The position numbers were made by a program, and so were the translations under genes. Below are positions 129-22,307 of a DNA stretch of 22,307 nucleotides, one piece after another. The stretch's first letter is position 1. Each line of letters starts with the position of its first letter. Origin of the DNA: Planctomycetales bacterium (lineage in GTDB: Bacteria; Planctomycetota; Phycisphaerae; SM23-33); the NCBI GenBank assembly GCA_030612725.1, contig JAUWNJ010000037.1:1-22307 (forward strand). Reading direction: 5' to 3'. The notes below the pieces were generated by a model, which saw nothing but the letters and a program-made list of their open reading frames with translations, was not told the DNA's origin and did not search any database.

Positions 129-3104
129 ATGAACGAAAAAAAGAAAAACTACAAAGACACGTTGAATCTTCCGAATACCGACTTCGATATGCGCGCCGGG
201 CTGCTCAAGAAAGAACCGGCTATGCAGGCACGCTGGTCCGAGCAGAATCTTTACGGGCAAATACGCGACGCCCGCGCCGGAAGCCCGCGATTCATTCTCC
301 ACGACGGCCCGCCATACGCCAACGGTAATATCCACATGGGCACCGCGCTGAACAAAATCCTCAAGGACATCGTCGTCCGGTGCAAGAACATGACCGGCTT
401 CGACGCGCCCTATGTCCCCGGCTGGGACTGCCACGGCCTGCCCATCGAATACCGCGTCCAGAGCGAACTCGGCGACAAACTGGTAAAAATGTCGCACATA
501 GACGTCCGCCGCCTGTGCGCCGAATACGCCGATAAGTACGTCAAAATCCAGTCCGAGCAGTTTCAGCGACTCGGCGTTCTCGGCGAATTCGACGCCCCTT
601 ACATCACAATGACGCCCCGGTACGAATCGGCAGTGCTGGAAGTCTTCGCACGCATGGTCGAGCAGGGACTGGTGTTCAGGCAACTCAAACCCGTTCACTG
701 GTCCATCGAGAACCGAACCGCACTGGCTGAAGCCGAGCTGGAATACCACGACCGCGAAGACGACAGCATCTACGTCCTGCTGGCTGGGGCCGATTCATCA
801 GCCCTGAAAAATCTGTTCGGCCTCAACGACGATACGCCGACCTATCTGATGATCTGGACGACCACACCGTGGACGCTACCGGCCAACCTGGCAGTGGCTG
901 TGCACCCGGATTTTGAATACTCTGCCGTCAAGTTCACCCACGCCGGCAAGGAAGTTATCGCCGTTATCGCCTCCGACCTTGTTGAAAAGGTCTGCGGTGT
1001 CGGCGGCGTTGAAAAATTCGAGGTTCTGGCGACCGCACGCGGAGCCGCTCTGGTCGATGCCGGAATCACCTACCTGCATCCGCTGATTGGCGAGAAGGTC
1101 TGTCCGGTCGTTCCCGCCAATTACGTTACGCTCGAAGACGGCACCGGCTTGGTTCACACGGCTCCGGGTCATGGAATGGAAGACTACGGTACGGGTTTGA
1201 AGTTCGACCTGGGGGTTTATTGCCCTGTCCGCGAAGACGGCACGTTCGACGAGACTGCTCCCGATTGGCTCATCGGCAAGAGCGTATGGGAGGCGAATCC
1301 GCTGGTTGTGGATTTTCTCTCAACGGCTGGCACGCTGTTTCATAAACAGGTCATAACGCACTCTTACCCGCACGACTGGCGGAGTAAGACGCCGACGATC
1401 TTCCGCGCGACCAAGCAGTGGTTCGTAGCCGTCGATGGTGATATGAAGCGCGGTACGACGCTGCGTGAGATGGCCATGGACGCCTGCCGAAAGAGCGCCG
1501 ACGACAATGGGATGGATTTCATCCCGGACTGGGGCAGAAACCGCCTGGCTGGAATGCTCGAAAGCAGACCCGACTGGTGCATCTCGCGCCAGCGGAGTTG
1601 GGGGCTTCCGATACCGGCATTCTACAACGAGGCCGGAGAAGTCCTGCTGACACCCGCGTCCGTCCGGGCAGTGGCCAAAAGTTTCGCCGAGCGAGGCTCG
1701 GATTGCTGGTTCACCGATTCGCCGACGGAACTACTGGGCGATTACGACCCTGTCTTCGATACGGATCTGGCCGAACCGAAAAACTTTGATGCGAGTGAAC
1801 TCCACACAGGCCATGACATTTTCGACGTATGGTTCGAGTCCGGTTCGAGTTGGTTCGCGGTGGCTGTCCGGCGAGAACTGGTCGATGAAATCCCGGTGGA
1901 CCTGTACCTCGAAGGTTCCGACCAGCATCGAGGGTGGTTCCAGTTATCGCTTCTGCCTGCGCTTGGAGCGGCTGGGCTACCGCCGTTCAGGACCGTCCTG
2001 ACACACGGATTCGTCGTTACCGAGGACGGGCACAAAATGTCCAAGTCGCTCGGAAACACCATCGACGTAATCGACCAACTCTCCAAGCGTGGAGCCGACA
2101 TTATCCGCCTGTGGGTAGCATCGCAGAACTACCAGGACGACGTCCGCTGCAGCGAAAATCTCATCGCCCAAAGCGAAGACGCCTACCGGAAGATTCGCAA
2201 TACGCTTCGGTTCTGCATGGGTTCGTGCAGCAATTTCGACCCTGCCCGACACACCGCCGAATCGTCCGAGCATTCGCTCGACCGATGGATGAGGCTGGAA
2301 CTGCACCAACTCATCCGCGATGTCCGCATCGCCTATGACAAATACGAATTTCACCGCGCGACACGGCTGATGTACGAGTTCTGCACCGTTCAGGCGTCCA
2401 GCGTCTATATGGCTGCGGTGAAAGACCGCCTGTACTGCGAATTACCCGATTCGCCGCGACGACGGGCGACCCAGGCGGTACTGCACGAGATGCTTTCTGT
2501 GCTGGTGAAACTCCTCGCTCCAATCCTGCCGCACACCGCCGAGGAAGCATGGGAGCACATCCCAGCCCGCGACCCAAACGAACCGGAAAACGTCCATCTG
2601 GCAATGATGCCGGAATATGACGAAGAAATGCTGGAAATGGCTGAAGACCTCAGGCCGGTCAACCCAGACCTCGCCCAGTTTTCCTCCGACGAAATCCAAG
2701 TGGGACCAAGCTGGATTTGGGACCGCCTGCTGGACCTGCGGGCAGACGGACTGGTCAAACTCGAAGCACTACGGAACGCCGGCGTCAAGAATCCGCTCGA
2801 CGCCGAAGCCGTCTTTACCATCGCCGACGACAACCAAGCAGCCGAAACATTCCTGGAAACCTATCTGGGCGAACTGGAAGACCTCCTCGGCGTCGGATAC
2901 GCGCGAATCGAGAAAGCGAGTAGCACAGGCATTAGTCCCGTGTCCGAAACTCTGCCTGTCGGCGTTCGCGTCGAGGACACGCGCGAAAAATACAGCCGAT
3001 GCGCCCGCTCATGGAAGCGCCGCCCGGACGTCGGTTCCGACGCGGAATACCCAGACCTCTCCGCCCGCGACGCCGAAGTGATGAAGGTGTTGGCGAAGAA
3101 ATAA
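129..3104 (+). CDS. ileS: Isoleucine--tRNA ligase (class I aaRS), 991 aa
   Basis: HIGH-type motif PYANGNIHMGTA near the N-terminus, KMSKS motif (HKMSKSLGN), and the typical IleRS N-terminal KDTLNLPNTDFDMRAG. Full-length uninterrupted ORF ending in TAA. Confidence 0.95.
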   Translation: MNEKKKNYKDTLNLPNTDFDMRAGLLKKEPAMQARWSEQNLYGQIRDARAGSPRFILHDGPPYANGNIHMGTALNKILKDIVVRCKNMTGFDAPYVPGWDCHGLPIEYRVQSELGDKLVKMSHIDVRRLCAEYADKYVKIQSEQFQRLGVLGEFDAPYITMTPRYESAVLEVFARMVEQGLVFRQLKPVHWSIENRTALAEAELEYHDREDDSIYVLLAGADSSALKNLFGLNDDTPTYLMIWTTTPWTLPANLAVAVHPDFEYSAVKFTHAGKEVIAVIASDLVEKVCGVGGVEKFEVLATARGAALVDAGITYLHPLIGEKVCPVVPANYVTLEDGTGLVHTAPGHGMEDYGTGLKFDLGVYCPVREDGTFDETAPDWLIGKSVWEANPLVVDFLSTAGTLFHKQVITHSYPHDWRSKTPTIFRATKQWFVAVDGDMKRGTTLREMAMDACRKSADDNGMDFIPDWGRNRLAGMLESRPDWCISRQRSWGLPIPAFYNEAGEVLLTPASVRAVAKSFAERGSDCWFTDSPTELLGDYDPVFDTDLAEPKNFDASELHTGHDIFDVWFESGSSWFAVAVRRELVDEIPVDLYLEGSDQHRGWFQLSLLPALGAAGLPPFRTVLTHGFVVTEDGHKMSKSLGNTIDVIDQLSKRGADIIRLWVASQNYQDDVRCSENLIAQSEDAYRKIRNTLRFCMGSCSNFDPARHTAESSEHSLDRWMRLELHQLIRDVRIAYDKYEFHRATRLMYEFCTVQASSVYMAAVKDRLYCELPDSPRRRATQAVLHEMLSVLVKLLAPILPHTAEEAWEHIPARDPNEPENVHLAMMPEYDEEMLEMAEDLRPVNPDLAQFSSDEIQVGPSWIWDRLLDLRADGLVKLEALRNAGVKNPLDAEAVFTIADDNQAAETFLETYLGELEDLLGVGYARIEKASSTGISPVSETLPVGVRVEDTREKYSRCARSWKRRPDVGSDAEYPDLSARDAEVMKVLAKK

Positions 3105-3203: not shown

Positions 3204-3938
3204 ATGGAAACGAGCGGCGCTATGTCCTTACCTCAAATAGACATATGGTACGGCAGTAAGTAAACTTTTGGTCGATTCGGCAACCCGCAACGGTGGGTCA
3301 ACCTGCCTGGACGAGCCAGCAGCCCCAACGGTATAGATTCGGTGCGCTGGATGCTCAACAACGACGAAGAAATCGATCGTCCCCTGCCGCTGGGTCCAAC
3401 GGCATTTCGCTTGATTGGCGAGGGCGATTTTAACATCGAACTGGACCGGGAAGCCCTGATCCAGGGCGACAACACCGTGGAAATCATCGCAACTGATCGG
3501 AACGGCAATGAGGCCGGACAGACCGTCACCGTCCGATACGCACCGGCTTCGTCCTGCCCCCTGCCGCACAGTGTCAACTGGGACCAGACTAAAGAAATCA
3601 ATGACGTGGCGCAAGTTGTTGACGGACTGTGGCGTCTGACCGATGACGGGGTGCGAACGGTTGAAATCGGCTATGACCGCATCATTGCGATCGGGGACGG
3701 CGACACGCAGGACCTGATTGCATGCGGCGTCGCCTACCGCCTCAAGGCGCGCGCGGAATCACGCCCCGACACACCCAGCCTCTACCGGATGAAAGTCTGG
3801 CCCGCCGACCAAGGCGAACCGGACGGTTGGCAACTGGAAGGACTTGGCGGTCAGGGCGAACTTGATCGCGGATCACTGCTTCTCGTCGCCCATAACGCAG
3901 ACGTTACATTTGGTGATGTTACGGTTACGGCCGTCTAA
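3204..3938 (+). pseudogene. Hypothetical protein gene with an in-frame TAA at 3261-3263. SD (GAGG) + ATG at 3204; the intact distal ORF is reported from GTG 3342, which has no SD.
   Basis: Translation in one frame: METSGAMSLPQIDIWYGSK*TFGRFGNPQRWVNLPGRASSPNGIDSVRWMLNNDEE... The region between the stop and GTG 3342 reads as protein-like with no other stops. Function unknown. Confidence 0.4.
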
Positions 3939-3939
3939 T

Positions 3940-3994
3940 ACCAATACGTCCTGTCGGCCCGGGCATTTCCCACGGCCTTGGTGAACCATTCCGG
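3940..3994 (-). pseudogene. Remnant of a hotdog-thioesterase 3' end (…TPEWFTKAVGNARADRTYWY*) immediately downstream of the DppA-like gene
   Basis: 3966-3994 matches 4866-4894 (the C-terminal coding region of the thioesterase at 4844-5263) at 26 of 29 positions, with 19 bp identical (ccttggtgaaccattccgg). The spacing is exactly 900 bp. The reverse-strand translation gives PEWFTK, as in the real C-terminus APEWFTKVMEN. Confidence 0.5.
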
Positions 3995-4006
3995 TGTCCC
4001 TGTTGG

Positions 4007-4801
4007 CTAGACGTAAATGATGTCCTGGATATTGTCGCTGCGAAGCCTCACGGTCTGACTGTTCACCCTCTCGACACCGGGCCTTGCGCAGACCTGGTCG
4101 GCGATGTCGGTATGGAAGAAGCGTTTTTCCAGAACGTAAGGCCCATCCCACTTCAGCGGCGCAACGGGACAATCCTTGTGCCTCTTTAATGCCCTGGCCG
4201 AGCCTTCTGCGATGCGCCTACGGGCCTCGAACGGCGAAAGCGAAATGGCCGAGTTGCGACTCAGCCCCTCCTTGACGCTGGCAGTGGTGATGCCCTCGAC
4301 TAATTCTTCAGCCTCGCGGCAGGCGGCATCGTCGCCGCTGAGGAATATCATCGGCAGGTCAACTGCGCCGATGTAAAGAGCGAATTGCGCGATCTCGCCG
4401 ATAAATCGGTCGTTCAGTTTATAGTATTCGATTTCCCTGCTGCTCTGAGTGTGGCTGAGATTGCCTCGCTCGACCCCCGCCATCGCATGTTGGCCGACCA
4501 TCATGCCCACGTCAAATGTCTTAATCACCTCGTTGCGTATCTGACGTGGAGCCAACGGTCTTCCGTGCAACAACCTCGCCTTGGGATGCAGGTCTTCGAA
4601 CCAGACCCCTCCGGGGCCGTGCCCGTCAACCACAAGTATGTCCGTAGCCCCCTCCTTCAATACGCCCTCCACTGCCGCATTGATCTCCGCCGTCAGCAGC
4701 CTCATGGAGTTTTCATAATACCGACCGTCCGAATACACATGATCTTTGAATGACACAACGCCGCTTACCCCTTCCAGATCCGTCATTATCAGAACTTTCA
4801 T
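4007..4801 (-). CDS. M55-family D-aminopeptidase (DppA-like)
   Basis: N-terminus MKVLIMTDLEGVSGV is characteristic of peptidase M55/DppA. Length 264 aa. Strong SD (AGGAAGGA) 5-8 nt upstream of the ATG. Confidence 0.8.
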   Translation of the reverse strand: MKVLIMTDLEGVSGVVSFKDHVYSDGRYYENSMRLLTAEINAAVEGVLKEGATDILVVDGHGPGGVWFEDLHPKARLLHGRPLAPRQIRNEVIKTFDVGMMVGQHAMAGVERGNLSHTQSSREIEYYKLNDRFIGEIAQFALYIGAVDLPMIFLSGDDAACREAEELVEGITTASVKEGLSRNSAISLSPFEARRRIAEGSARALKRHKDCPVAPLKWDGPYVLEKRFFHTDIADQVCARPGVERVNSQTVRLRSDNIQDIIYV

Positions 4802-4843
4802 AACATTTTCCTTCCTGGATTGAATGTCCCTATTATGATACCG

Positions 4844-5263
4844 CTAATGCTCATCGGCATGAGCGTTTTCCATGACCTTGGTGAACCATTCCGGCGCGCG
4901 GATGGGTTTGCCCGCCGGGTCGATGAAAGCGTGGACGGTGTATCCTTCAGCCACCGGCATGCCGCTGCCGGCGTGGACGATTTTCACGTCGCATCGGATG
5001 CGGGCCTTTCCGACCATCCGCCCGGTCGTGGTCGTCTCCAGCAGGTCGTCGTACCTCGCCCTGCCTCGGTATTTCACATACGATTCAACCACCGGAAGCA
5101 GCACGCCGCGTTCCTCCATCTCGGCATACGACGTGCCGGTCCGCCTGAAAAACTCCGTCCGCCCACACTCGAACCAGTCCAACGCACTCGAATTGGAATA
5201 CGTGCCCATCTGGTCCGTCTCGCTGTAACGAACGCGAAATTGTACGACGCTCTCAACCGACAT
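4844..5263 (-). CDS. Acyl-CoA thioesterase, 4HBT/YbgC-like hotdog fold
   Basis: FRVRYSETDQMGTYSNSSALDWFE... is a typical YbgC/4HBT N-terminal catalytic region. 139 aa. SD AAAGGTGA upstream. Co-directional with, and 42 bp upstream of, the DppA-like gene. Confidence 0.75.
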   Translation of the reverse strand: MSVESVVQFRVRYSETDQMGTYSNSSALDWFECGRTEFFRRTGTSYAEMEERGVLLPVVESYVKYRGRARYDDLLETTTTGRMVGKARIRCDVKIVHAGSGMPVAEGYTVHAFIDPAGKPIRAPEWFTKVMENAHADEH

Positions 5264-5378: not shown

Positions 5379-5849
5379 ATGGATTCGCATCAGGTACTAC
5401 AAAAAGCGATCGAAAAGGTCGGCGCAAAGAAGGTGGCTGGGGATATGCGAGTGTCTTCGTCGCTGGTGTATAAATGGTGCCAACCCTCCGACGACAACAC
5501 AACGATTGAGCCGAGCGGTACGCGCAATCCGCTTGACCGCGTTGCAGCCTTGCTGGAAAGCACGAATGACGCGAACGTAGTACAATGGCTTTGCGAACGG
5601 GCGGGCGGATTTTTCGTTCACGATCCCGAGGTCAGCGACCGCCGCATCGATGCCGAATATATCGCCAACACGCAGCGGATAATTGAGGATTTTTCCCGGC
5701 TGCTTCGCGCTCTATCAGGCGCTATCGCCGACGACGGGAAAGTGGACGAAGACGAAGCGCGGAACATCCGAACGCAATGGCAAAGACTTAAACGATACGG
5801 CGAAGCCTTCGTCATCGCATGCGAACGAGGAATGTTCGCAGAAACCTGA
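5379..5849 (+). CDS. HTH DNA-binding protein resembling phage CII (186 CII/CP76-type) regulators
   Basis: N-terminal segment VGAKKVAGDMRVSSSLVYKWCQPSDDNT has the helix-turn-helix then W-x-x-P layout of CII-type regulators. 156 aa. AGGA 10 nt upstream of the ATG. The family assignment is from memory of the family, not a search. Confidence 0.5.
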   Translation: MDSHQVLQKAIEKVGAKKVAGDMRVSSSLVYKWCQPSDDNTTIEPSGTRNPLDRVAALLESTNDANVVQWLCERAGGFFVHDPEVSDRRIDAEYIANTQRIIEDFSRLLRALSGAIADDGKVDEDEARNIRTQWQRLKRYGEAFVIACERGMFAET

Positions 5850-8980: not shown

Positions 8981-9364
8981 TCAGTAAATTTGACTCTCAA
9001 CCCATTCTCGCGTACGTCGCACCATCTCCAAGGCCTCACGGCGATCCAAAGATGCTTCATGTGGCATTGTCTCGTAGCGAAAAAGCGATGCGTAGGGATT
9101 GAGAATATCAATGTCCTGCAGATCGTTCGGGACAGGGTGTCCTTCATCGGCCAAAAGGTCTATAAGTTCACGCAGATCATGTGTCTTGCGAAATCTGATT
9201 CCATGCAAGGATAATAACGCTTTGAGAATTTTTTCGAGAGCCTGTTGGCAGTGGAAGCCAATCGTATCATCGGAGACTCGTTCAGAATTGAGGACCTCAT
9301 CGACCAGCACTTCATCGTGCCGTGCCTTTTCCAGCAGAATAAGAGCCTGTTCACGCTGCTTCAT
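8981..9364 (-). CDS. HEPN-domain toxin (HepT-like) of a HEPN/MNT pair
   Basis: R-x4-H HEPN motif (RFRKTH) and an all-helical sequence. The start at internal ATG 9364 (MKQREQ...) overlaps the upstream MNT gene stop by 14 bp. The longer ORF to 9451 is probably not used. Confidence 0.75.
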   Translation of the reverse strand: MKQREQALILLEKARHDEVLVDEVLNSERVSDDTIGFHCQQALEKILKALLSLHGIRFRKTHDLRELIDLLADEGHPVPNDLQDIDILNPYASLFRYETMPHEASLDRREALEMVRRTREWVESQIY

Positions 9365-9668
9365 ATAGGACTTCTCCTTCCAGCGCGACCTCGAACATGA
9401 GGTTTCCCGGCGTATCCGACCAATAGTTATAGTACGCTTCATTGACCACAACTACATCCGCCGGAATTCGTAATGGGCTGACTACCCGTCGCAGGCGGAC
9501 CATCTCGGCCATGACGTCGGCGACCTGATCTTCCACTACAAGCAGGTCCACGTCGCTACCTTCGTCGGCGTTACCTGTCGCGTACGAACCGAATAAAATA
9601 ATTTTTTTCGGATGCGCCGCGTCGCGTAACAACTCAACCGCTTTTGAAATGCTTTCAGAGTCTATCAT
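9351..9668 (-). CDS. Minimal nucleotidyltransferase (MntA-like antitoxin) of a HEPN/MNT pair
   Basis: GSYATGNADEGSDVDLLVV is the hG[GS]x9-13Dh[DE]h nucleotidyltransferase signature. 105 aa. Confidence 0.8.
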   Translation of the reverse strand: MIDSESISKAVELLRDAAHPKKIILFGSYATGNADEGSDVDLLVVEDQVADVMAEMVRLRRVVSPLRIPADVVVVNEAYYNYWSDTPGNLMFEVALEGEVLYEAA

Positions 9669-11467: not shown

Positions 11468-11470
11468 AAG

Positions 11471-11600
11471 CAGTCAGCGGTCAGCTATCAGCAGTCAGCA
11501 AAAACAGATAACAGCAAACAACAAACAACGAACGAGCTGACCGCTGATCGCTCTTTGCTTTTTGCTTTTTGCTGATCGCTGAATGCTGACCGCTGATCGC
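11471..11600. terminator. Compound inverted/direct repeat, probably a bidirectional terminator, between convergent genes
   Basis: tcagcggtcagctatcagcagtcagcaaaaa (11474-11505) is the near reverse complement of ttttgctgatcgctgaatgctgaccgctga (~11566-11597). gctgaccgctgatcgc occurs as an exact 16-bp direct repeat at 11535-11550 and 11585-11600. The T/A-rich tracts gcaaaaacag and ctttttgctttttgc flank the centre. Confidence 0.5.
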
Positions 11601-13051
11601 TATAGATCAAAATACATACAGAATTCGAACGGGTGAGGCCTTTGGCGCAGCGCGTCCACCTCGTTCTCGCGTTTGTACTTCATCCAATAATAAATCACGT
11701 CGTCGGTAAAGACGCCGCCTTCCAGCAGGTATTTATGGTCTGCTTCCAGGGCGTTCAGGGCTGCATCCAGATCGACCGGGGCTGAGGCGATTTTGGCGTA
11801 CTCTTCGGCGCTGAGGTGGTAAATGTCCTTGTCGATGGGGTCGCCGGGGTCGATCTCATTTTTAATCCCGTCGAGGGCGGCCATCGTTATGGCTGAAAAC
11901 GCCAGGTACGGATTGCAACTGCTGTCCGGGCAGCGGAACTCCAGACGTTTGGTCCTTGGATTTTCGCTGTAAGTCGGTATGCGTATGGCGGCGGAGCGGT
12001 TCCGACTGGAATAGACCATGTTCACCGGCGCTTCGTATCCCGGAACGAGGCGCTTGTAACTGTTGGTCGTCGGGTTGGTGAAGGCCAACAGCGATGAGGC
12101 GTGTTTGAGGATTCCGCCGATGGCGTGCAGACCCATTTTCGAGAACCCGGCGTATTCGCCTCCGGCAAAGAGCGGTGTGTCGCCCTTCCACAAAGAGAAG
12201 TGTACGTGCATACCCGATCCGTTGTCCTGAAAGAGCGGCTTGGGCATGAAGGTAACGGTTTTACCGAACCATGCAGCCACGTTCTTGGTGATGTACTTAT
12301 ACAGCATCACCTTGTCGGACATGTTCACAAGCGTATCGAAGAGCATGTCGATCTCGGCCTGCCCGCCGGTGGCGACCTCGTGGTGATGCGCTTCGACGGC
12401 GATTCCGCACTGTTGGAGAACGGCCATCATTTCCGAGCGGATGTCCTGACCCCGATCGGTCGGCGGAAGCGGGAAGTATCCTTCCTTGAGGCGAACCTTA
12501 TGGCCGAGGTTGTCGGGGTTGTCGCTTCCTCGGTTCCAGATACCCTCTTCGCTGTCCACGTAGTAATGCGCGCCGTTGACGGTCTGGTCGTATCGGGCGT
12601 GGTCGAAGATGAAGAACTCCGGCTCGGGGCCGAAGCAGGCTGTGTCGGCGATTCCGCTTTGGGCCAGGTACGCCTCACACTTCCGCCCGATGGACCTGGG
12701 GTCCCGGCTGTATTCCTCGAAGTCGATGGGACTTTTGACATTGCAGATTAACATCAGTGTCGGGCGAGCCATGAACGGATCGACCACAGCCGTATCGGCT
12801 ACGGGCACGATGAGCATGTCGGACTCGTTAATCGCCTGCCATCCACGGAGGCTCGAACCGTCGAAACCAAAACCGGCAGTGAAACTCTCTTCAGTCAGTT
12901 CACTCGCCGGAACCGTCAAGTGTTGCCACAGACCCGGAAAGTCCAGAAACCGCAGGTCCACAAATTCGATCTTTCCGGTCTGATTGGTCTTGGGTATTGA
13001 AACTTCCTTATTGCGAATAAAATCAACCACTTCGGCAGGCGTCTTAAACAT
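11600..13051 (-). CDS. glnA: Glutamine synthetase type I
   Basis: MFKTPAEVVDFIRNKEV N-terminus; GS beta-grasp and catalytic regions (DGSS, GPEPEFF, NGSGMHVHFSLW, YKRLVPGYEAPV, RIPTYSENPRTKRLEFRCPD). AAGGA SD 8 nt upstream of ATG 13051. The ORF tool over-extends it to 13144. Confidence 0.9.
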   Translation of the reverse strand: MFKTPAEVVDFIRNKEVSIPKTNQTGKIEFVDLRFLDFPGLWQHLTVPASELTEESFTAGFGFDGSSLRGWQAINESDMLIVPVADTAVVDPFMARPTLMLICNVKSPIDFEEYSRDPRSIGRKCEAYLAQSGIADTACFGPEPEFFIFDHARYDQTVNGAHYYVDSEEGIWNRGSDNPDNLGHKVRLKEGYFPLPPTDRGQDIRSEMMAVLQQCGIAVEAHHHEVATGGQAEIDMLFDTLVNMSDKVMLYKYITKNVAAWFGKTVTFMPKPLFQDNGSGMHVHFSLWKGDTPLFAGGEYAGFSKMGLHAIGGILKHASSLLAFTNPTTNSYKRLVPGYEAPVNMVYSSRNRSAAIRIPTYSENPRTKRLEFRCPDSSCNPYLAFSAITMAALDGIKNEIDPGDPIDKDIYHLSAEEYAKIASAPVDLDAALNALEADHKYLLEGGVFTDDVIYYWMKYKRENEVDALRQRPHPFEFCMYFDL

Positions 13052-13158
13052 TTTTGCATCCTTCCAGTCAAAAGGCGGAATCTCAACTCTGGTATAAAAC
13101 CCACGACGGGGCAGGAGTTTAACACCCGCAGGCGGGACGGTCAAGAGGAATACAAAAT

Positions 13159-13316
13159 GGCATCAGGCATTGGGCATTTGGCATTGGTGGCACGGGGTTT
13201 ATGAAGGTTGTTCCTGTTTAATTCGCCGATTCGGCAAAACCGCCGGACATAATGACCGAACGTGCAATTACCAACAACCACCAATGCCCAGTACCGAATG
13301 CCGAATGCCCAATTCC
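13159..13316. promoter_or_regulatory. Inverted arrays of GGCATTN heptamers in the glnA / M42-peptidase divergent intergenic region, candidate regulator binding sites
   Basis: ggcatca ggcattg ggcattt ggcattg gtgg at 13159-13190, and the reverse-complement array caatgcc cagtacc gaatgcc gaatgcc caattcc at 13279-13316. ggcattggtgg and ccaccaatgcc are perfect 11-bp reverse complements ~88 bp apart. The palindrome gccgattcggc lies between them at 13224-13234. Confidence 0.4.
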
Positions 13317-18748: not shown

Positions 18749-18830
18749 TGGCCCTGATTTCAATCGGCCGGAATGGAAAAAGGTTTCGACTACGCTAAAG
18801 CTCCGCCCGGAGCCTACGCCTTGCCCCTTT

Positions 18831-18863
18831 CAATCCGCAATCCACAATCTGCAATCCGCAATC
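18831..18863. repeat. Tandem heptamer (CAATCYR) x ~4.7: caatccg caatcca caatctg caatccg caatc
   Basis: Read directly. Located in the convergent intergenic region 4 bp 3' of the beta-propeller gene stop. Preceded at 18809-18827 by an inverted partial copy of the REP-like motif (ggagcctacgccttgcccc). Confidence 0.6.
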
Positions 18864-20511: not shown

Positions 20512-20527
20512 GAACGGCTCCTTTCAA

Positions 20528-20612
20528 ATGTCAAAAATCTTACCCGGATTGAGGATATTGTTCGGGTCCCACGCCCGCTTGATGGCGCGCATCACGTCTA
20601 TCACCGGCTCGG
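20528..20612 (-). pseudogene. Relic 3' end of a GlcD-like FAD-oxidase gene (…AEPVIDVMRAIKRAWDPNNILNPGKIFDI*), a direct-repeat copy of 21404-21488
   Basis: ~85 bp, ~93% identical to the genuine 3' end of the GlcD-like CDS at 21399-. Six mismatches, all transitions. The protein sequence is conserved except the final V/I. The relic stop is followed 17 bp later by the SD+ATG of the beta-propeller gene. Confidence 0.6.
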
Positions 20613-20720
20613 CAGGTAGCGCCACCGCCAATCCAAACCCGAAACGACATGCAGAACCCACGGTGATACTCCCTTCGGAAATACGGTTTGGCATAGAATG
20701 AAACGAGGCGTAATCCCGAC

Positions 20721-20879
20721 TTACTGCTGATGGTGTTCCTTCTGGCGTTGAACAAGTTGTTCGTATTTCTTGTCCCAGTAGGCGAGCTGCTCTTCTGTGG
20801 TCATCCCACTAAGCCTTTCCTGAACCCGCTTAGCCCCCTGGCGTTTCATCTCGACACAATCAAATGTCTTCGTCTTCAT
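20721..20879 (-). CDS. Small (52 aa) ORF overlapping the 3' end of the PIN gene by 19 bp, candidate antitoxin partner in reversed gene order
   Basis: MKTKTFDCVEMKRQGAKRVQERLSGMTTEEQLAYWDKKYEQLVQRQKEHHQQ. Its ATG lies inside the PIN C-terminal codons in another frame. Below the ORF-track size cut-off. Charged, helical. Confidence 0.35.
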   Translation of the reverse strand: MKTKTFDCVEMKRQGAKRVQERLSGMTTEEQLAYWDKKYEQLVQRQKEHHQQ

Positions 20880-21336
20880 ATTCAATCACCTCCAGAGGGG
20901 AGTAGATAGCGATCTCCGAAAATCCTTTCTGCCTGTTCACTGCATTATACAAGGGGATCTTATCAAAGTGAACAATGTGTTTGAAATTCCAGCTTACTAT
21001 TATCGAACATTCGCTGACGGTGGTAATTGCAACATGTAAAGCATCATCAGAAGATTTGTCAGTCAGAATGCCGAAAGATAAATATGCAGCCTGCAATCGG
21101 GTCGCATCAGCAGTGATTCGCACAATATCGGCGCCGACGGTAACTTCGTCGAGAAACCGTTGTACCCGTTCAGGCGCAGCTACCAGTTCATCCTGAACCA
21201 GAGGTGAAAGAACCAAGCGAAAACGCCCCTCGAGAACCTGGCGAAAGAATTGTTGGCTGGGCCTGGAAAACTCTTCATCAAAAGCACCACCAAAAACAGA
21301 TGTATCCGCATAGATTCTTATCGGTTCCCATTTCAT
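20860..21336 (-). CDS. PIN-domain ribonuclease (VapC-like toxin)
   Basis: Acidic PIN residues in the expected places (IYADTSVFGG N-terminal Asp, DALHVA, SWNFKHIV C-terminal region). 158 aa. No upstream antitoxin ORF between 21337 and 21398. Confidence 0.75.
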   Translation of the reverse strand: MKWEPIRIYADTSVFGGAFDEEFSRPSQQFFRQVLEGRFRLVLSPLVQDELVAAPERVQRFLDEVTVGADIVRITADATRLQAAYLSFGILTDKSSDDALHVAITTVSECSIIVSWNFKHIVHFDKIPLYNAVNRQKGFSEIAIYSPLEVIEYEDEDI

Positions 21337-21398: not shown

Positions 21399-22307
21399 CT
21401 ACACGTCAAAAATCTTACCCGGATTGAGAATGTTGTTCGGATCCCACGCCCGCTTGATGGCACGCATCACGTCTATCACCGGTTCAGCCATTACCAGCGG
21501 GAGGTACTTTTTTCTCTTGTGCCCGATCCCGTGTTCGCCGCTTATCGTCCCGCCGAGACTCTTTGCCAATTCGTACAGTTCCTTGAGCACATCAGGCAGC
21601 GTTTTTTCCCATTTCTCCACAGACCAGTCCGGATTCATCACGATGCGCGTATGCATGTTCCCGTCCCCGGCGTGGCCGTAGCATGGAATCTGAACGCCAT
21701 ATTTGTCGGCTATCCGTCCCATCCCCGCCACAAGAGCGGGGATCTCGGCTATCGGAACCACCAAATCCTCACTGCTCTGATAGCGGCTTACCAAGCCATA
21801 TGCTTCACCGATATTCCGCCGGACCTTCCATATCCGTTCGCTCGTCGTGAAATTGTCAGCCACATAAACTTCTATCGCACCGGCTTCCAGGCACATCTCG
21901 CCGATGGCTTCATACTCACGCTCAACCTGCTCGGCGTCCGAACCGTCAACCGTTATCAGCAGCATCGCACCGGCCCGCTCGTAGGGAATCGTCTCGTTCA
22001 GATACTCGCACGACGCGCGAACAGAACTGCGGTCCATAAACTCAATGGCTGTCGGTATTATCCCACTGCCGGTCATTATATTAGGAACAGCCTCAATGGC
22101 CTGCTCCGCCGACTCAAACAAACAAAGCAAATCAACGCTGGCCGTCGGCAGCGGCATCAGTTTCAACGTTATCTTCGTGAATATACCAAGCGTGCCCTCC
22201 GAGCCGACCATCAGGCCAATCAGGTTGTAGCCCGTAACGTCCTTGACCAACTTGCCGCCGAGTTGAACAATCTCGCCCGTCGGCGTTACAACCTCCAGGC
22301 CGGTTAC
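21399..22307 (-). CDS. FAD-linked oxidase (GlcD / D-lactate dehydrogenase family), C-terminal ~300 aa. The 5' end lies beyond the window.
   Basis: FAD-oxidase C-terminal domain motifs (GEHGIGHKRKKYL, RAWDPNNILNPGKIF). The reading frame stays open to the window edge (…VTGLEVVTPTGEIVQLGGKLVKDVTGYNL…). The M the tool reports at 22250 is an internal TTG. Confidence 0.85.
   Translation of the reverse strand, partial: VTGLEVVTPTGEIVQLGGKLVKDVTGYNLIGLMVGSEGTLGIFTKITLKLMPLPTASVDLLCLFESAEQAIEAVPNIMTGSGIIPTAIEFMDRSSVRASCEYLNETIPYERAGAMLLITVDGSDAEQVEREYEAIGEMCLEAGAIEVYVADNFTTSERIWKVRRNIGEAYGLVSRYQSSEDLVVPIAEIPALVAGMGRIADKYGVQIPCYGHAGDGNMHTRIVMNPDWSVEKWEKTLPDVLKELYELAKSLGGTISGEHGIGHKRKKYLPLVMAEPVIDVMRAIKRAWDPNNILNPGKIFDV

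Follow-up and report, generated by a model that had tools for sequence, protein, structure and literature searches.

A displaced thioesterase gene end behind a DppA-like gene, most likely the scar of ordinary recombination in a Phycisphaerae genome

How does a gene come to be followed by a second copy of the end of the gene upstream of it? The question is raised by a 22,307-nt stretch of a Planctomycetales bacterium (class Phycisphaerae; contig JAUWNJ010000037.1, hereafter the window), in which a gene for a DppA-like M55 metallopeptidase lies between the intact 3' end of a hotdog-fold acyl-CoA thioesterase gene and an imperfect direct copy of that end, the relic. We consider it probable, from comparisons with related loci, that roughly 1 kb of DNA from related lineages was integrated by homology in the conserved gene end and left an insertion-duplication scar. 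The locus would most likely add a natural case, clearly resolved, to a kind of event already known, the scar of ordinary recombination, and would not be a new kind of element.

The thioesterase gene (4844-5263, minus strand; 139 aa, intact; Pfam 4HBT_2, E = 4.8e-15) ends in the working tail PEWFTKVMENAHADEH plus stop, which was delimited by repeat search and translation as repeat copy A (4844-4894, minus strand) and is contiguous with the DppA-like cargo gene (4007-4801, minus strand; 264 aa; Pfam Peptidase_M55, E = 4.4e-66). Repeat copy B, which reads PEWFTKAVGNARADRTYWY and stop (3935-3994, minus strand), starts 12 nt past the DppA stop, in frame with DppA. Direct reading confirmed the original prediction of a 29-bp match in which 3966-3994 and 4866-4894 are equal at 26/29 positions, including the 19-nt exact run CCTTGGTGAACCATTCCGG, with the relic 3' of DppA on the minus strand. 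A repeat search of the window stretched the match to 41 nt at 83% identity (3954-3994 vs 4854-4894). Ranked by reference-copy length, no two-copy direct repeat of the window surpasses this one and an 84-nt repeat of a FAD-linked oxidase gene described below. The likeness of the relic and the thioesterase tail at the protein level (PEWFTK..NA.AD) also exceeds the 29 nt, as the minus-strand reading of the relic is PTGTPEWFTKAVGNARADRTYWY and stop, and the thioesterase C-terminus reads APEWFTKVMENAHADEH and stop. The predicted spacing of exactly 900 bp is true of the window but incidental, since it is 921 bp in a related locus, L113. Furthermore, the 19-mer did not behave as a widespread motif: with up to 3 mismatches, it was found at 2 sites only in the 22.3 kb, two such matches were obtained in 0/100 shuffles, and both 19-mer matches in viral contigs fell in unrelated ORFs (open reading frames) coding LWPEWFTKE. 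A 24-mer of the FAD-oxidase tail had no match in viral contigs.

A genome scan with the thioesterase protein gave 30 loci, the closest of which were in Planctomycetales/Phycisphaerae metagenome-assembled genomes with orthologs 77-93% identical, and protein searches and context look-ups added more. The comparators, designated here by L numbers, were metagenomic contigs throughout, mostly short. The original prediction had asked whether the thioesterase gene is ever followed directly by the gene at 3204-3938 without dppA. This arrangement was found in L115, where the order is thioesterase, a 324-aa hypothetical gene and isoleucyl-tRNA synthetase (IleRS). A multiple alignment showed that the L113 relic, the DNA beyond it and the end of the 324-aa gene are collinear with the thioesterase tail, the intergenic DNA and the 324-aa gene of L115. 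Over the 22 nt from the stop codon, the relic copy matched L115 at 21/22 positions and the thioesterase-attached copy at 11/22 (Fisher p = 0.0015). As L115 offers an empty site collinear with the relic, DppA is an insertion relative to L115. DppA is also missing at the same site in L116, L007, L005, L006, L004 and L112, and relatives thus differ in what stands between thioesterase and IleRS. The predicted order of an intact thioesterase, DppA and a relic tail was borne out, and we consider it probable that the resident thioesterase gene once ended in 3935-3994, which was then displaced and is now non-functional and decaying.

The gene that the original prediction placed at 3204-3938 is indeed the resident neighbor that adjoins thioesterase in L115, but in the window it is a degraded ortholog of the 324-aa gene (3222-3938, plus strand), which would have been the convergent neighbor of thioesterase before the insertion. 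A tblastn search with the L113 protein as query revealed a CAA to TAA change at codon 14 and a 243-nt in-frame deletion. The gene is intact in L113, L115 and L119 and belongs to no Pfam family; in the window, a pseudogene remnant of it probably accounts for the 198-aa ORF listed from 3342.

The relic architecture was also present in assemblies L001, L113, L119 and L120. The L113/L119 relic is without 18 nt present in the window, while the window relic is without 21 nt (between two CCGG) and 31 nt present in L113/L119. In L118, about 16 nt are left after DppA, and in L003 the relic is gone. The right-hand junction of the insert is a 12-nt linker past the DppA stop (CCAACAGGGACA; 3995-4006, minus strand), possibly eroded thioesterase codons P-T-G. 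The linker flank also stands 3' of DppA in L113/L119 and L118; the 21 extra nt that L113/L119 have at this point, between two CCGG repeats, suggest that the window has lost them. In both the window (3935-4009) and L119 (about 878-950), the relic shares its frame with the TAG of DppA, which is probably a coincidence (about 1 in 9). As the 21-nt and 18-nt indels are multiples of three, we considered whether translation might run past this TAG into the relic, but rejected the idea because the relic is missing in L003, measures 16 nt in L118 and varies in its end between relatives. Within the window relic, some likeness to the end of IleRS was seen (GGGCCGACAGGACGTA vs GGGCGGACAGGTCGGGATA), but it was weak, at E of about 0.5, and was taken as chance.

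Sliding identity between the window and L003 was 87-97% across the CII and thioesterase genes and fell at copy A, in the thioesterase tail, to 62-81% across DppA. L003 and L118 were 79-89% identical throughout. In L112, the CII gene reached 98-99% identity to L005, while the thioesterase gene was 91-96% identical to the window clade and 75-88% to L005. DppA thus appears to differ in ancestry from its flanks, with a breakpoint at the thioesterase tail. Two DppA allele groups occupy the same site, A1 (window, L113, L114 and L119) and A2 (L003 and L118). When the coding regions were compared (window 4007-4801, L003 5714-6505, L118 701-1495), DNA identity was about 73% between the window and L003 and about 77% between the window and L118, for window/L003 flanks of about 92%; the DppA cargo gene itself thus appears to have been exchanged between lineages. 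Furthermore, the thioesterase tails of L118 (ENARADRP and stop) and L003 were closer to the window relic than the window's working tail is, as would fit if this working tail had been replaced in the window clade. We infer that copy A came in together with DppA.

The divergence between working tails and relics also bears on their origin. Own and relic thioesterase tails of L112 had a proportion of synonymous differences (pS) of 0.66 and of non-synonymous differences (pN) of 0.13 over 34 codons, with the relic frame intact. For the FAD-oxidase of the window, 6.5 synonymous and 1.5 non-synonymous differences were counted over 29 codons (pS 0.34, pN 0.022). A junk copy made in situ would give roughly half-neutral differences. 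As mostly synonymous differences were seen, the L112 thioesterase and window FAD-oxidase copies appear to have been working tails, functional alleles of separate lineages, before they were joined.

The interval between thioesterase and IleRS holds at least 8 different contents in relatives that are 65-93% identical. L007 and L116 have nothing there, so that IleRS is the direct convergent partner of thioesterase, and L115 has the 324-aa gene alone. DppA stands alone against a truncated IleRS end in L003, with the relic and the 324-aa gene in the window, L001, L113, L119 and L120, and with a 112-aa ORF (orf112) in L118; the contigs of L002 and L114 stop within DppA. Other contents are a 69-aa ORF (L005), two opposite-strand ORFs (L006), a sigma-54 activator (L004/L117), and an OCD_Mu_crystallin gene with a segment X', a relic and a PIN_10/DUF433 pair (L112/L121). 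The interval is therefore a gene-turnover hotspot between two conserved genes.

The last of these contents repeats the architecture of the window with other genes. In L112, thioesterase is followed by an ornithine cyclodeaminase-like gene (OCD_Mu_crystallin), a fragment of about 45 nt, a thioesterase relic and an IleRS relic. The fragment is the 3' end, on the opposite strand, of a 148-aa gene that follows thioesterase in L006. The thioesterase relic starts near codon 95 and has an open frame to its stop (ending in DYTVHAFTDPTGRPIRAPEWFIEAMENADSR); 11 nt past it, on the other strand, lies the IleRS relic tail RDAEVMKALDA and stop, which a PIN_10/DUF433 (toxin-antitoxin) pair parts from the intact IleRS gene. 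L112 and L121, which come from different samples, share 99.7% identity over the region. Since the two relics face each other 11 nt apart, L112 appears to keep the ancestral convergent thioesterase-IleRS junction as a fossil between two separate insertion-duplications. A look-up of an 80% homolog of the OCD protein (P0242) found no donor arrangement for this cargo on record. The L112 relic was 72-80% identical to the tail of every relative in the lineage and 65% to that of L007, and the nearest tail was not decisive.

A further case lies at the window's opposite end, where the edge cuts a FAD-linked oxidase gene to its C-terminal 302 aa (21399-22307, minus strand; Pfam FAD-oxidase_C, E = 8e-61). 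The intact tail copy of this gene (21405-21488) is followed by a second cargo block (20721-21336, minus strand) formed by a PIN gene (20860-21336; Pfam PIN) and an overlapping 52-aa ORF (20721-20879), and then by a relic FAD-oxidase tail (AEPVIDVMRAIKRAWDPNNILNPGKIFDI and stop; 20524-20613, minus strand). The direct repeat (D1; 20530-20613 vs 21405-21488) measures 84 nt, with 93% identity and a spacing of 875; own and relic tails share 28/29 aa, and no leftover homology was found upstream of the 84 nt. An RGL11-like gene with an AAGGAG ribosome-binding site begins 12 nt past the relic. In L051, the RGL11-like gene stands directly behind the FAD-oxidase gene and is itself followed by a FAD-oxidase tail relic (57-60 nt, 95-96%); in L087 a relic of 30 nt follows a 358-aa ORF. 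Because the relic-RGL11 junction of the window mirrors the FAD-oxidase-RGL11 junction of L051, the window relic would belong to the resident arrangement.

PIN and its small partner adjoin FAD-oxidase genes in L032, L034, L058 and L065. The PIN genes of L032 and L065, which are full-length, share 55-63% identity with that of the window, while the FAD-oxidases share 72-77%. PIN and the 52-aa ORF thus appear to be old neighbors of FAD-oxidase genes and not a recent mobile arrival, and the window block fits the capture of a FAD-oxidase tail plus PIN from a related strain into a FAD-oxidase-RGL11 arrangement. The parallel that had been drawn between the PIN and DppA modules holds for the architecture, with its 84-nt, 93% repeat, but not for the history, since PIN is a long-standing neighbor of FAD-oxidase. 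A metagenome scan with the FAD-oxidase gave only relatives of 77% identity or less, and exact-sequence look-ups with the PIN and RGL11-like proteins returned no matches and no close relative for this locus. Eight related loci (L032, L036, L037, L043, L057, L068, L070 and L106) carry two ancient tandem FAD-oxidase paralogs, 67-78% identical over the C-terminal 302 aa; the DNA between them is variable, from 0 to about 1.7 kb, and holds the pair of PIN and small ORF in L032.

Under the favored explanation, the incoming segment at the DppA locus would have been about 0.9 kb long and would have comprised a thioesterase 3' end, a 42-nt leader and the DppA-like gene, from a related but diverged lineage that already had thioesterase and DppA as neighbors. 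The left junction would have formed by homologous exchange in or beside the conserved thioesterase tail, around the 19-nt identical core. At the right junction, the DppA end would have been joined to codon ~113-121 of the recipient thioesterase, further upstream in the tail, and the stretch between the two junctions would thereby have been doubled. The incoming tail would have kept thioesterase whole, with DppA behind it in the same orientation, while the displaced resident tail would have been left as junk between DppA and the convergent 324-aa gene. Integration may have been carried out by host general recombination functions, through a Campbell-type single crossover of a circularised fragment or through one-sided homology combined with an illegitimate join (homology-facilitated illegitimate recombination, HFIR), and the site between the convergent thioesterase and IleRS genes would be a hotspot of repeated exchanges. 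A direct partial duplication flanks the insert, with the upstream gene intact, at thioesterase, at FAD-oxidase and in L112. A piece of a neighboring gene is carried by the L112 insert, whose cargo ends in the 45-nt fragment of the 148-aa gene; DppA has only 12-16 nt past its stop, too short to assign.

Several observations weigh against this explanation. We found no donor haplotype that combined a NAHADEH-tailed thioesterase with an A1 DppA and no relic. The crossover homology is short, with an exact core of 19 nt, and that of L112 is now very poor (about 75%, longest identical runs about 10 nt), so that one has to suppose either a long anchor upstream or divergence after the event there. The cargo edges are tight: just 12 nt part the DppA stop from the relic, and the cargo amounts to little more than a leader and an ORF. 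Five or six events at only three gene ends also look more orderly than random fragment capture. Own and relic thioesterase tails of the window gave pS 0.41 and pN 0.24, an uninformative comparison of 16 codons only in a weakly constrained tail. A repeat scan of about 880 kb of other fetched DNA gave at most 1 comparable case. Lastly, the block that moved may instead have been the relic with the 324-aa gene, and not the tail with DppA.

Some of these points would suit a non-autonomous integrative cassette served by a recombinase in trans, with its attachment site in a gene 3' end, a surrogate tail of its own and the relic as the displaced attB half. The same architecture is known from icd - e14 - icdC (PMC13626634), and compact cargo in target-gene orientation, repeats as tight bounds, the 19-nt exact core, direct repeats flanking an insert that bears a surrogate tail, and the same few gene ends hit in different lineages would all be expected. 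However, Pfam searches found no integrase, transposase or reverse transcriptase in the major window ORFs or in cargo and neighbor ORFs of related loci, and the gene tables of related loci listed no recombinase; an integrase is thus lacking from the module, the window and every related haplotype. tRNA and Rfam RNA searches found nothing, the repeat search found no inverted repeats at the cargo ends, and these ends share no common motif or special fold, both strands of both copies folding no better than shuffled sequences (z-scores -0.6 to +1.3). The thioesterase relics start at codon ~95 in L112 and at ~113-121 in the window clade, and FAD-oxidase relics measure 84, 57 and 30 nt; that the left edge shifts from one duplication to the next speaks against a fixed attachment core, and the core is not kept in L113. 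Besides, the L112 cargo ends in a fragment of a neighboring chromosomal gene, the viral-contig 19-mers lie only inside unrelated ORFs, and PIN with its small partner is a long-standing FAD-oxidase neighbor. We regard such a cassette as unlikely.

The original prediction had proposed a recurrent insertion mechanism that targets gene 3' ends. The architecture does recur, at the ends of thioesterase, IleRS and FAD-oxidase genes, but dedicated targeting is unsupported because of the lack of a recombinase, tRNA or fold, the variable left edges, the chromosomal-gene fragment in L112, the synonymous divergence, the ancestry switch and the old association of PIN with FAD-oxidase. A dedicated process of single-gene addition in this Phycisphaerae lineage, in which a trans-acting recombinase or a copy-in process would recognize gene ends and add co-oriented promoterless cargo with a tail duplication of 30-130 nt, would explain the five or six events at three gene ends and the tight cargo edges. 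We give it only a slim chance.

Duplication in situ seems just as improbable. The repeats would come from staggered breaks about 60-110 nt apart that were filled once the cargo had been ligated, as in a very long target-site duplication, or from template switching in replication that took DppA from another place and set it between tandem tail copies, and the relic would have drifted from an identical copy. Direct repeats do adjoin cargo of almost exactly leader plus ORF, the window thioesterase pair is near-neutral (pN/pS about 0.6), and template-switch-like events appear to occur here, as the L003 DppA/IleRS junction holds a 25-nt filler copied from 3 kb away. This origin is nevertheless opposed by the strongly synonymous divergence of own and relic copies in L112 and the window FAD-oxidase, by the DNA past the stop, where copy A agrees with the outgroup at 11/22 and copy B at 21/22 positions, and by the different ancestries of DppA with tail A and of the thioesterase body. 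Furthermore, the best DppA match outside the locus does not exceed 69% identity, so that the genome offers no evident source, and neither a transposase nor terminal inverted repeats were found.

Less probable still is that the relic is what remains of a second tandem gene copy whose body was deleted, DppA or PIN having lain between the paralogs. Many relatives have two full-length tandem FAD-oxidase paralogs, PIN and its partner lie between them in L032 and L058, and divergence biased to synonymous sites would also be expected of a second copy that worked until recently. For the FAD-oxidase relic, an ancient-paralog leftover was rejected as main explanation, since relic and adjacent gene share 28/29 aa where the paralogs differ (in the AEPVIDVM stretch) and since homology stops upstream of the 84 nt; the relic also gives way to the RGL11-like gene at 12 nt, as in the operon junction of L051. 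For thioesterase, a second copy was present in 0 of about 40 loci, and the relic runs on collinearly with L115, into the intergenic DNA resident there and the 324-aa gene. Finally, a chance likeness, a functional DNA or RNA motif or an assembly artefact, which the exact core of only 19 nt and the metagenomic source might suggest, is effectively refuted by the shuffles (two matches in 0/100), by the protein-level extension collinear with orthologous tails, by the same architecture in other assemblies from other samples and that of L112 in two assemblies, and by the lack of an Rfam family, tRNA or stable fold in the searches made.

Integration of related chromosomal DNA by general recombination has an experimental counterpart. 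In E. coli conjugation, single crossovers of circular molecules that bore part of the lacZ end left duplications of this end, 109-950 bp long, on both sides of the insert in 56/60 clones and outnumbered true one-sided events (PMC3240628). Like Campbell or HFIR insertion-duplication, our cases show a partial direct duplication of a gene end that flanks the insert, leave the upstream copy intact and need no element recombinase. The duplications vary between clones in E. coli (109-950 bp; PMC3240628) and between events here (about 30-130 nt). Unlike the E. coli experiment, the scars are natural and old, in uncultured Phycisphaerae/Planctomycetales, the homology is shorter, and the donor would be chromosomal DNA of diverged relatives instead of a plasmid. 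The locus appears to match insertion-duplication by general recombination in every feature for which its data were informative.

Prophage e14 in icd of E. coli K-12 brings an element-borne tail and displaces the resident one as the icdC pseudogene (PMC13626634). As with e14, an intact gene uses an insert-borne tail, a C-terminal pseudogene lies at the far end, and the tails differ by few, mostly conservative changes (PMC13626634). In contrast, e14 is 15 kb long with its own integrase and excisionase and a fixed core, whereas the inserts described here measure 0.65-1.8 kb and have no recombinase and variable edges, and one of them includes a fragment of a neighboring chromosomal gene. Like integron cassettes, they are single promoterless co-oriented genes in series, each with a repeat behind it, but what is repeated is coding sequence, the upstream gene's tail, and not attC, and neither a fold nor IntI was found. 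Unlike a transposon or insertion sequence, they have a variable duplication of 30-130 nt, and no transposase or terminal inverted repeats were found. Unlike a diversity-generating retroelement, the window has no reverse transcriptase; compared by position, the 48-nt tails had 13 differences, 2 on relic adenines and 5 on own-copy adenines.

Oliveira, Touchon and Rocha reportedly described in 2017 many transfer hotspots without mobile elements and attributed them to homologous recombination at flanking core genes. The short interval between thioesterase and IleRS resembles such hotspots in its differing genes, its lack of mobile-element genes and its mosaic flanks. Most turnover hotspots are inferred from gene-content differences alone, since double crossovers are traceless. 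Unlike those clean exchanges, which leave no scar, the duplicated tails expose the junctions, which can be read directly, and such scars would date and orient events and tell incoming from resident DNA. They suggest that a conserved gene can gain DNA behind it, in pieces of about 1 kb and from lineages that have diverged by 10-30%, without mobile-element genes. In annotation, short orphan ORFs, and conserved genes that seem to vary at the C-terminus, would be accounted for by such relics, and relics without a recombinase should not be read as mobile-element attachment sites. If they proved common in complete genomes of uncultured Planctomycetota, they would provide a simple marker for the rate of gene gain by one-sided recombination in nature.

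The spacer between the thioesterase stop and the DppA start (4802-4843, minus strand) measures 42 nt and contains a GGAAGGA ribosome-binding site. Its leader, ACATTCAATCC(A/T)GGAAGGAAA(A)TGTTATG, is common to all DppA haplotypes (L002, L003, L113 and L118). No promoter-like or terminator-like match was found in the spacer; together with the short gap and the GGAAGGA site, this suggests that thioesterase and DppA are probably co-transcribed.

The conserved far flank of the interval is the isoleucyl-tRNA synthetase-like class I synthetase (129-3104, plus strand; Pfam tRNA-synt_1, E = 2e-123). Upstream of it, at about 41-75, the window carries a perfect hairpin (CGTGGTCGC GGTGTTT GCGACCACG). The left half of this hairpin (25 nt, 96%) recurs at L003 6506-6530 as filler from the DppA stop to IleRS, and the L003 IleRS is without its normal last codons and ends in ANTATTTPATHK and stop, which suggests a junction made by template switching or with filler DNA.

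All 118 loci (881 kb) were compared with themselves for direct repeats; ORF calls in this GC-rich DNA were too poor for an estimate of 3' vs 5' enrichment. The comparison gave the known cases, heptamer arrays, terminator-like hairpins and one 47-nt repeat in L012. The two L012 copies (3473-3519 and 3975-4021; 98% identical, 502 bp apart) lie directly after the stops of consecutive minus-strand ORFs of 573 and 133 aa. A gene and a small gene are thus each followed by a repeat copy, as in the modules above, except that the repeated DNA lies past the stop and is not a coding tail. Among the intergenic 7-nt arrays, (GATTGCG)n occupies 18800-18860 of the window, behind the RGL11-like gene, and inverted heptamer arrays (11469-11601 and 13159-13309) stand immediately downstream and upstream of a glutamine synthetase gene (11600-13144). 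A distant relative, L027, has comparable arrays of (GCTCTTR)n at 318-347 and 5779-5807. The window also carries, among housekeeping genes, a 105-aa nucleotidyltransferase gene (NTP_transf_2/Polbeta; 9351-9668, minus strand) of a kind known from MNT-HEPN toxin-antitoxin pairs.

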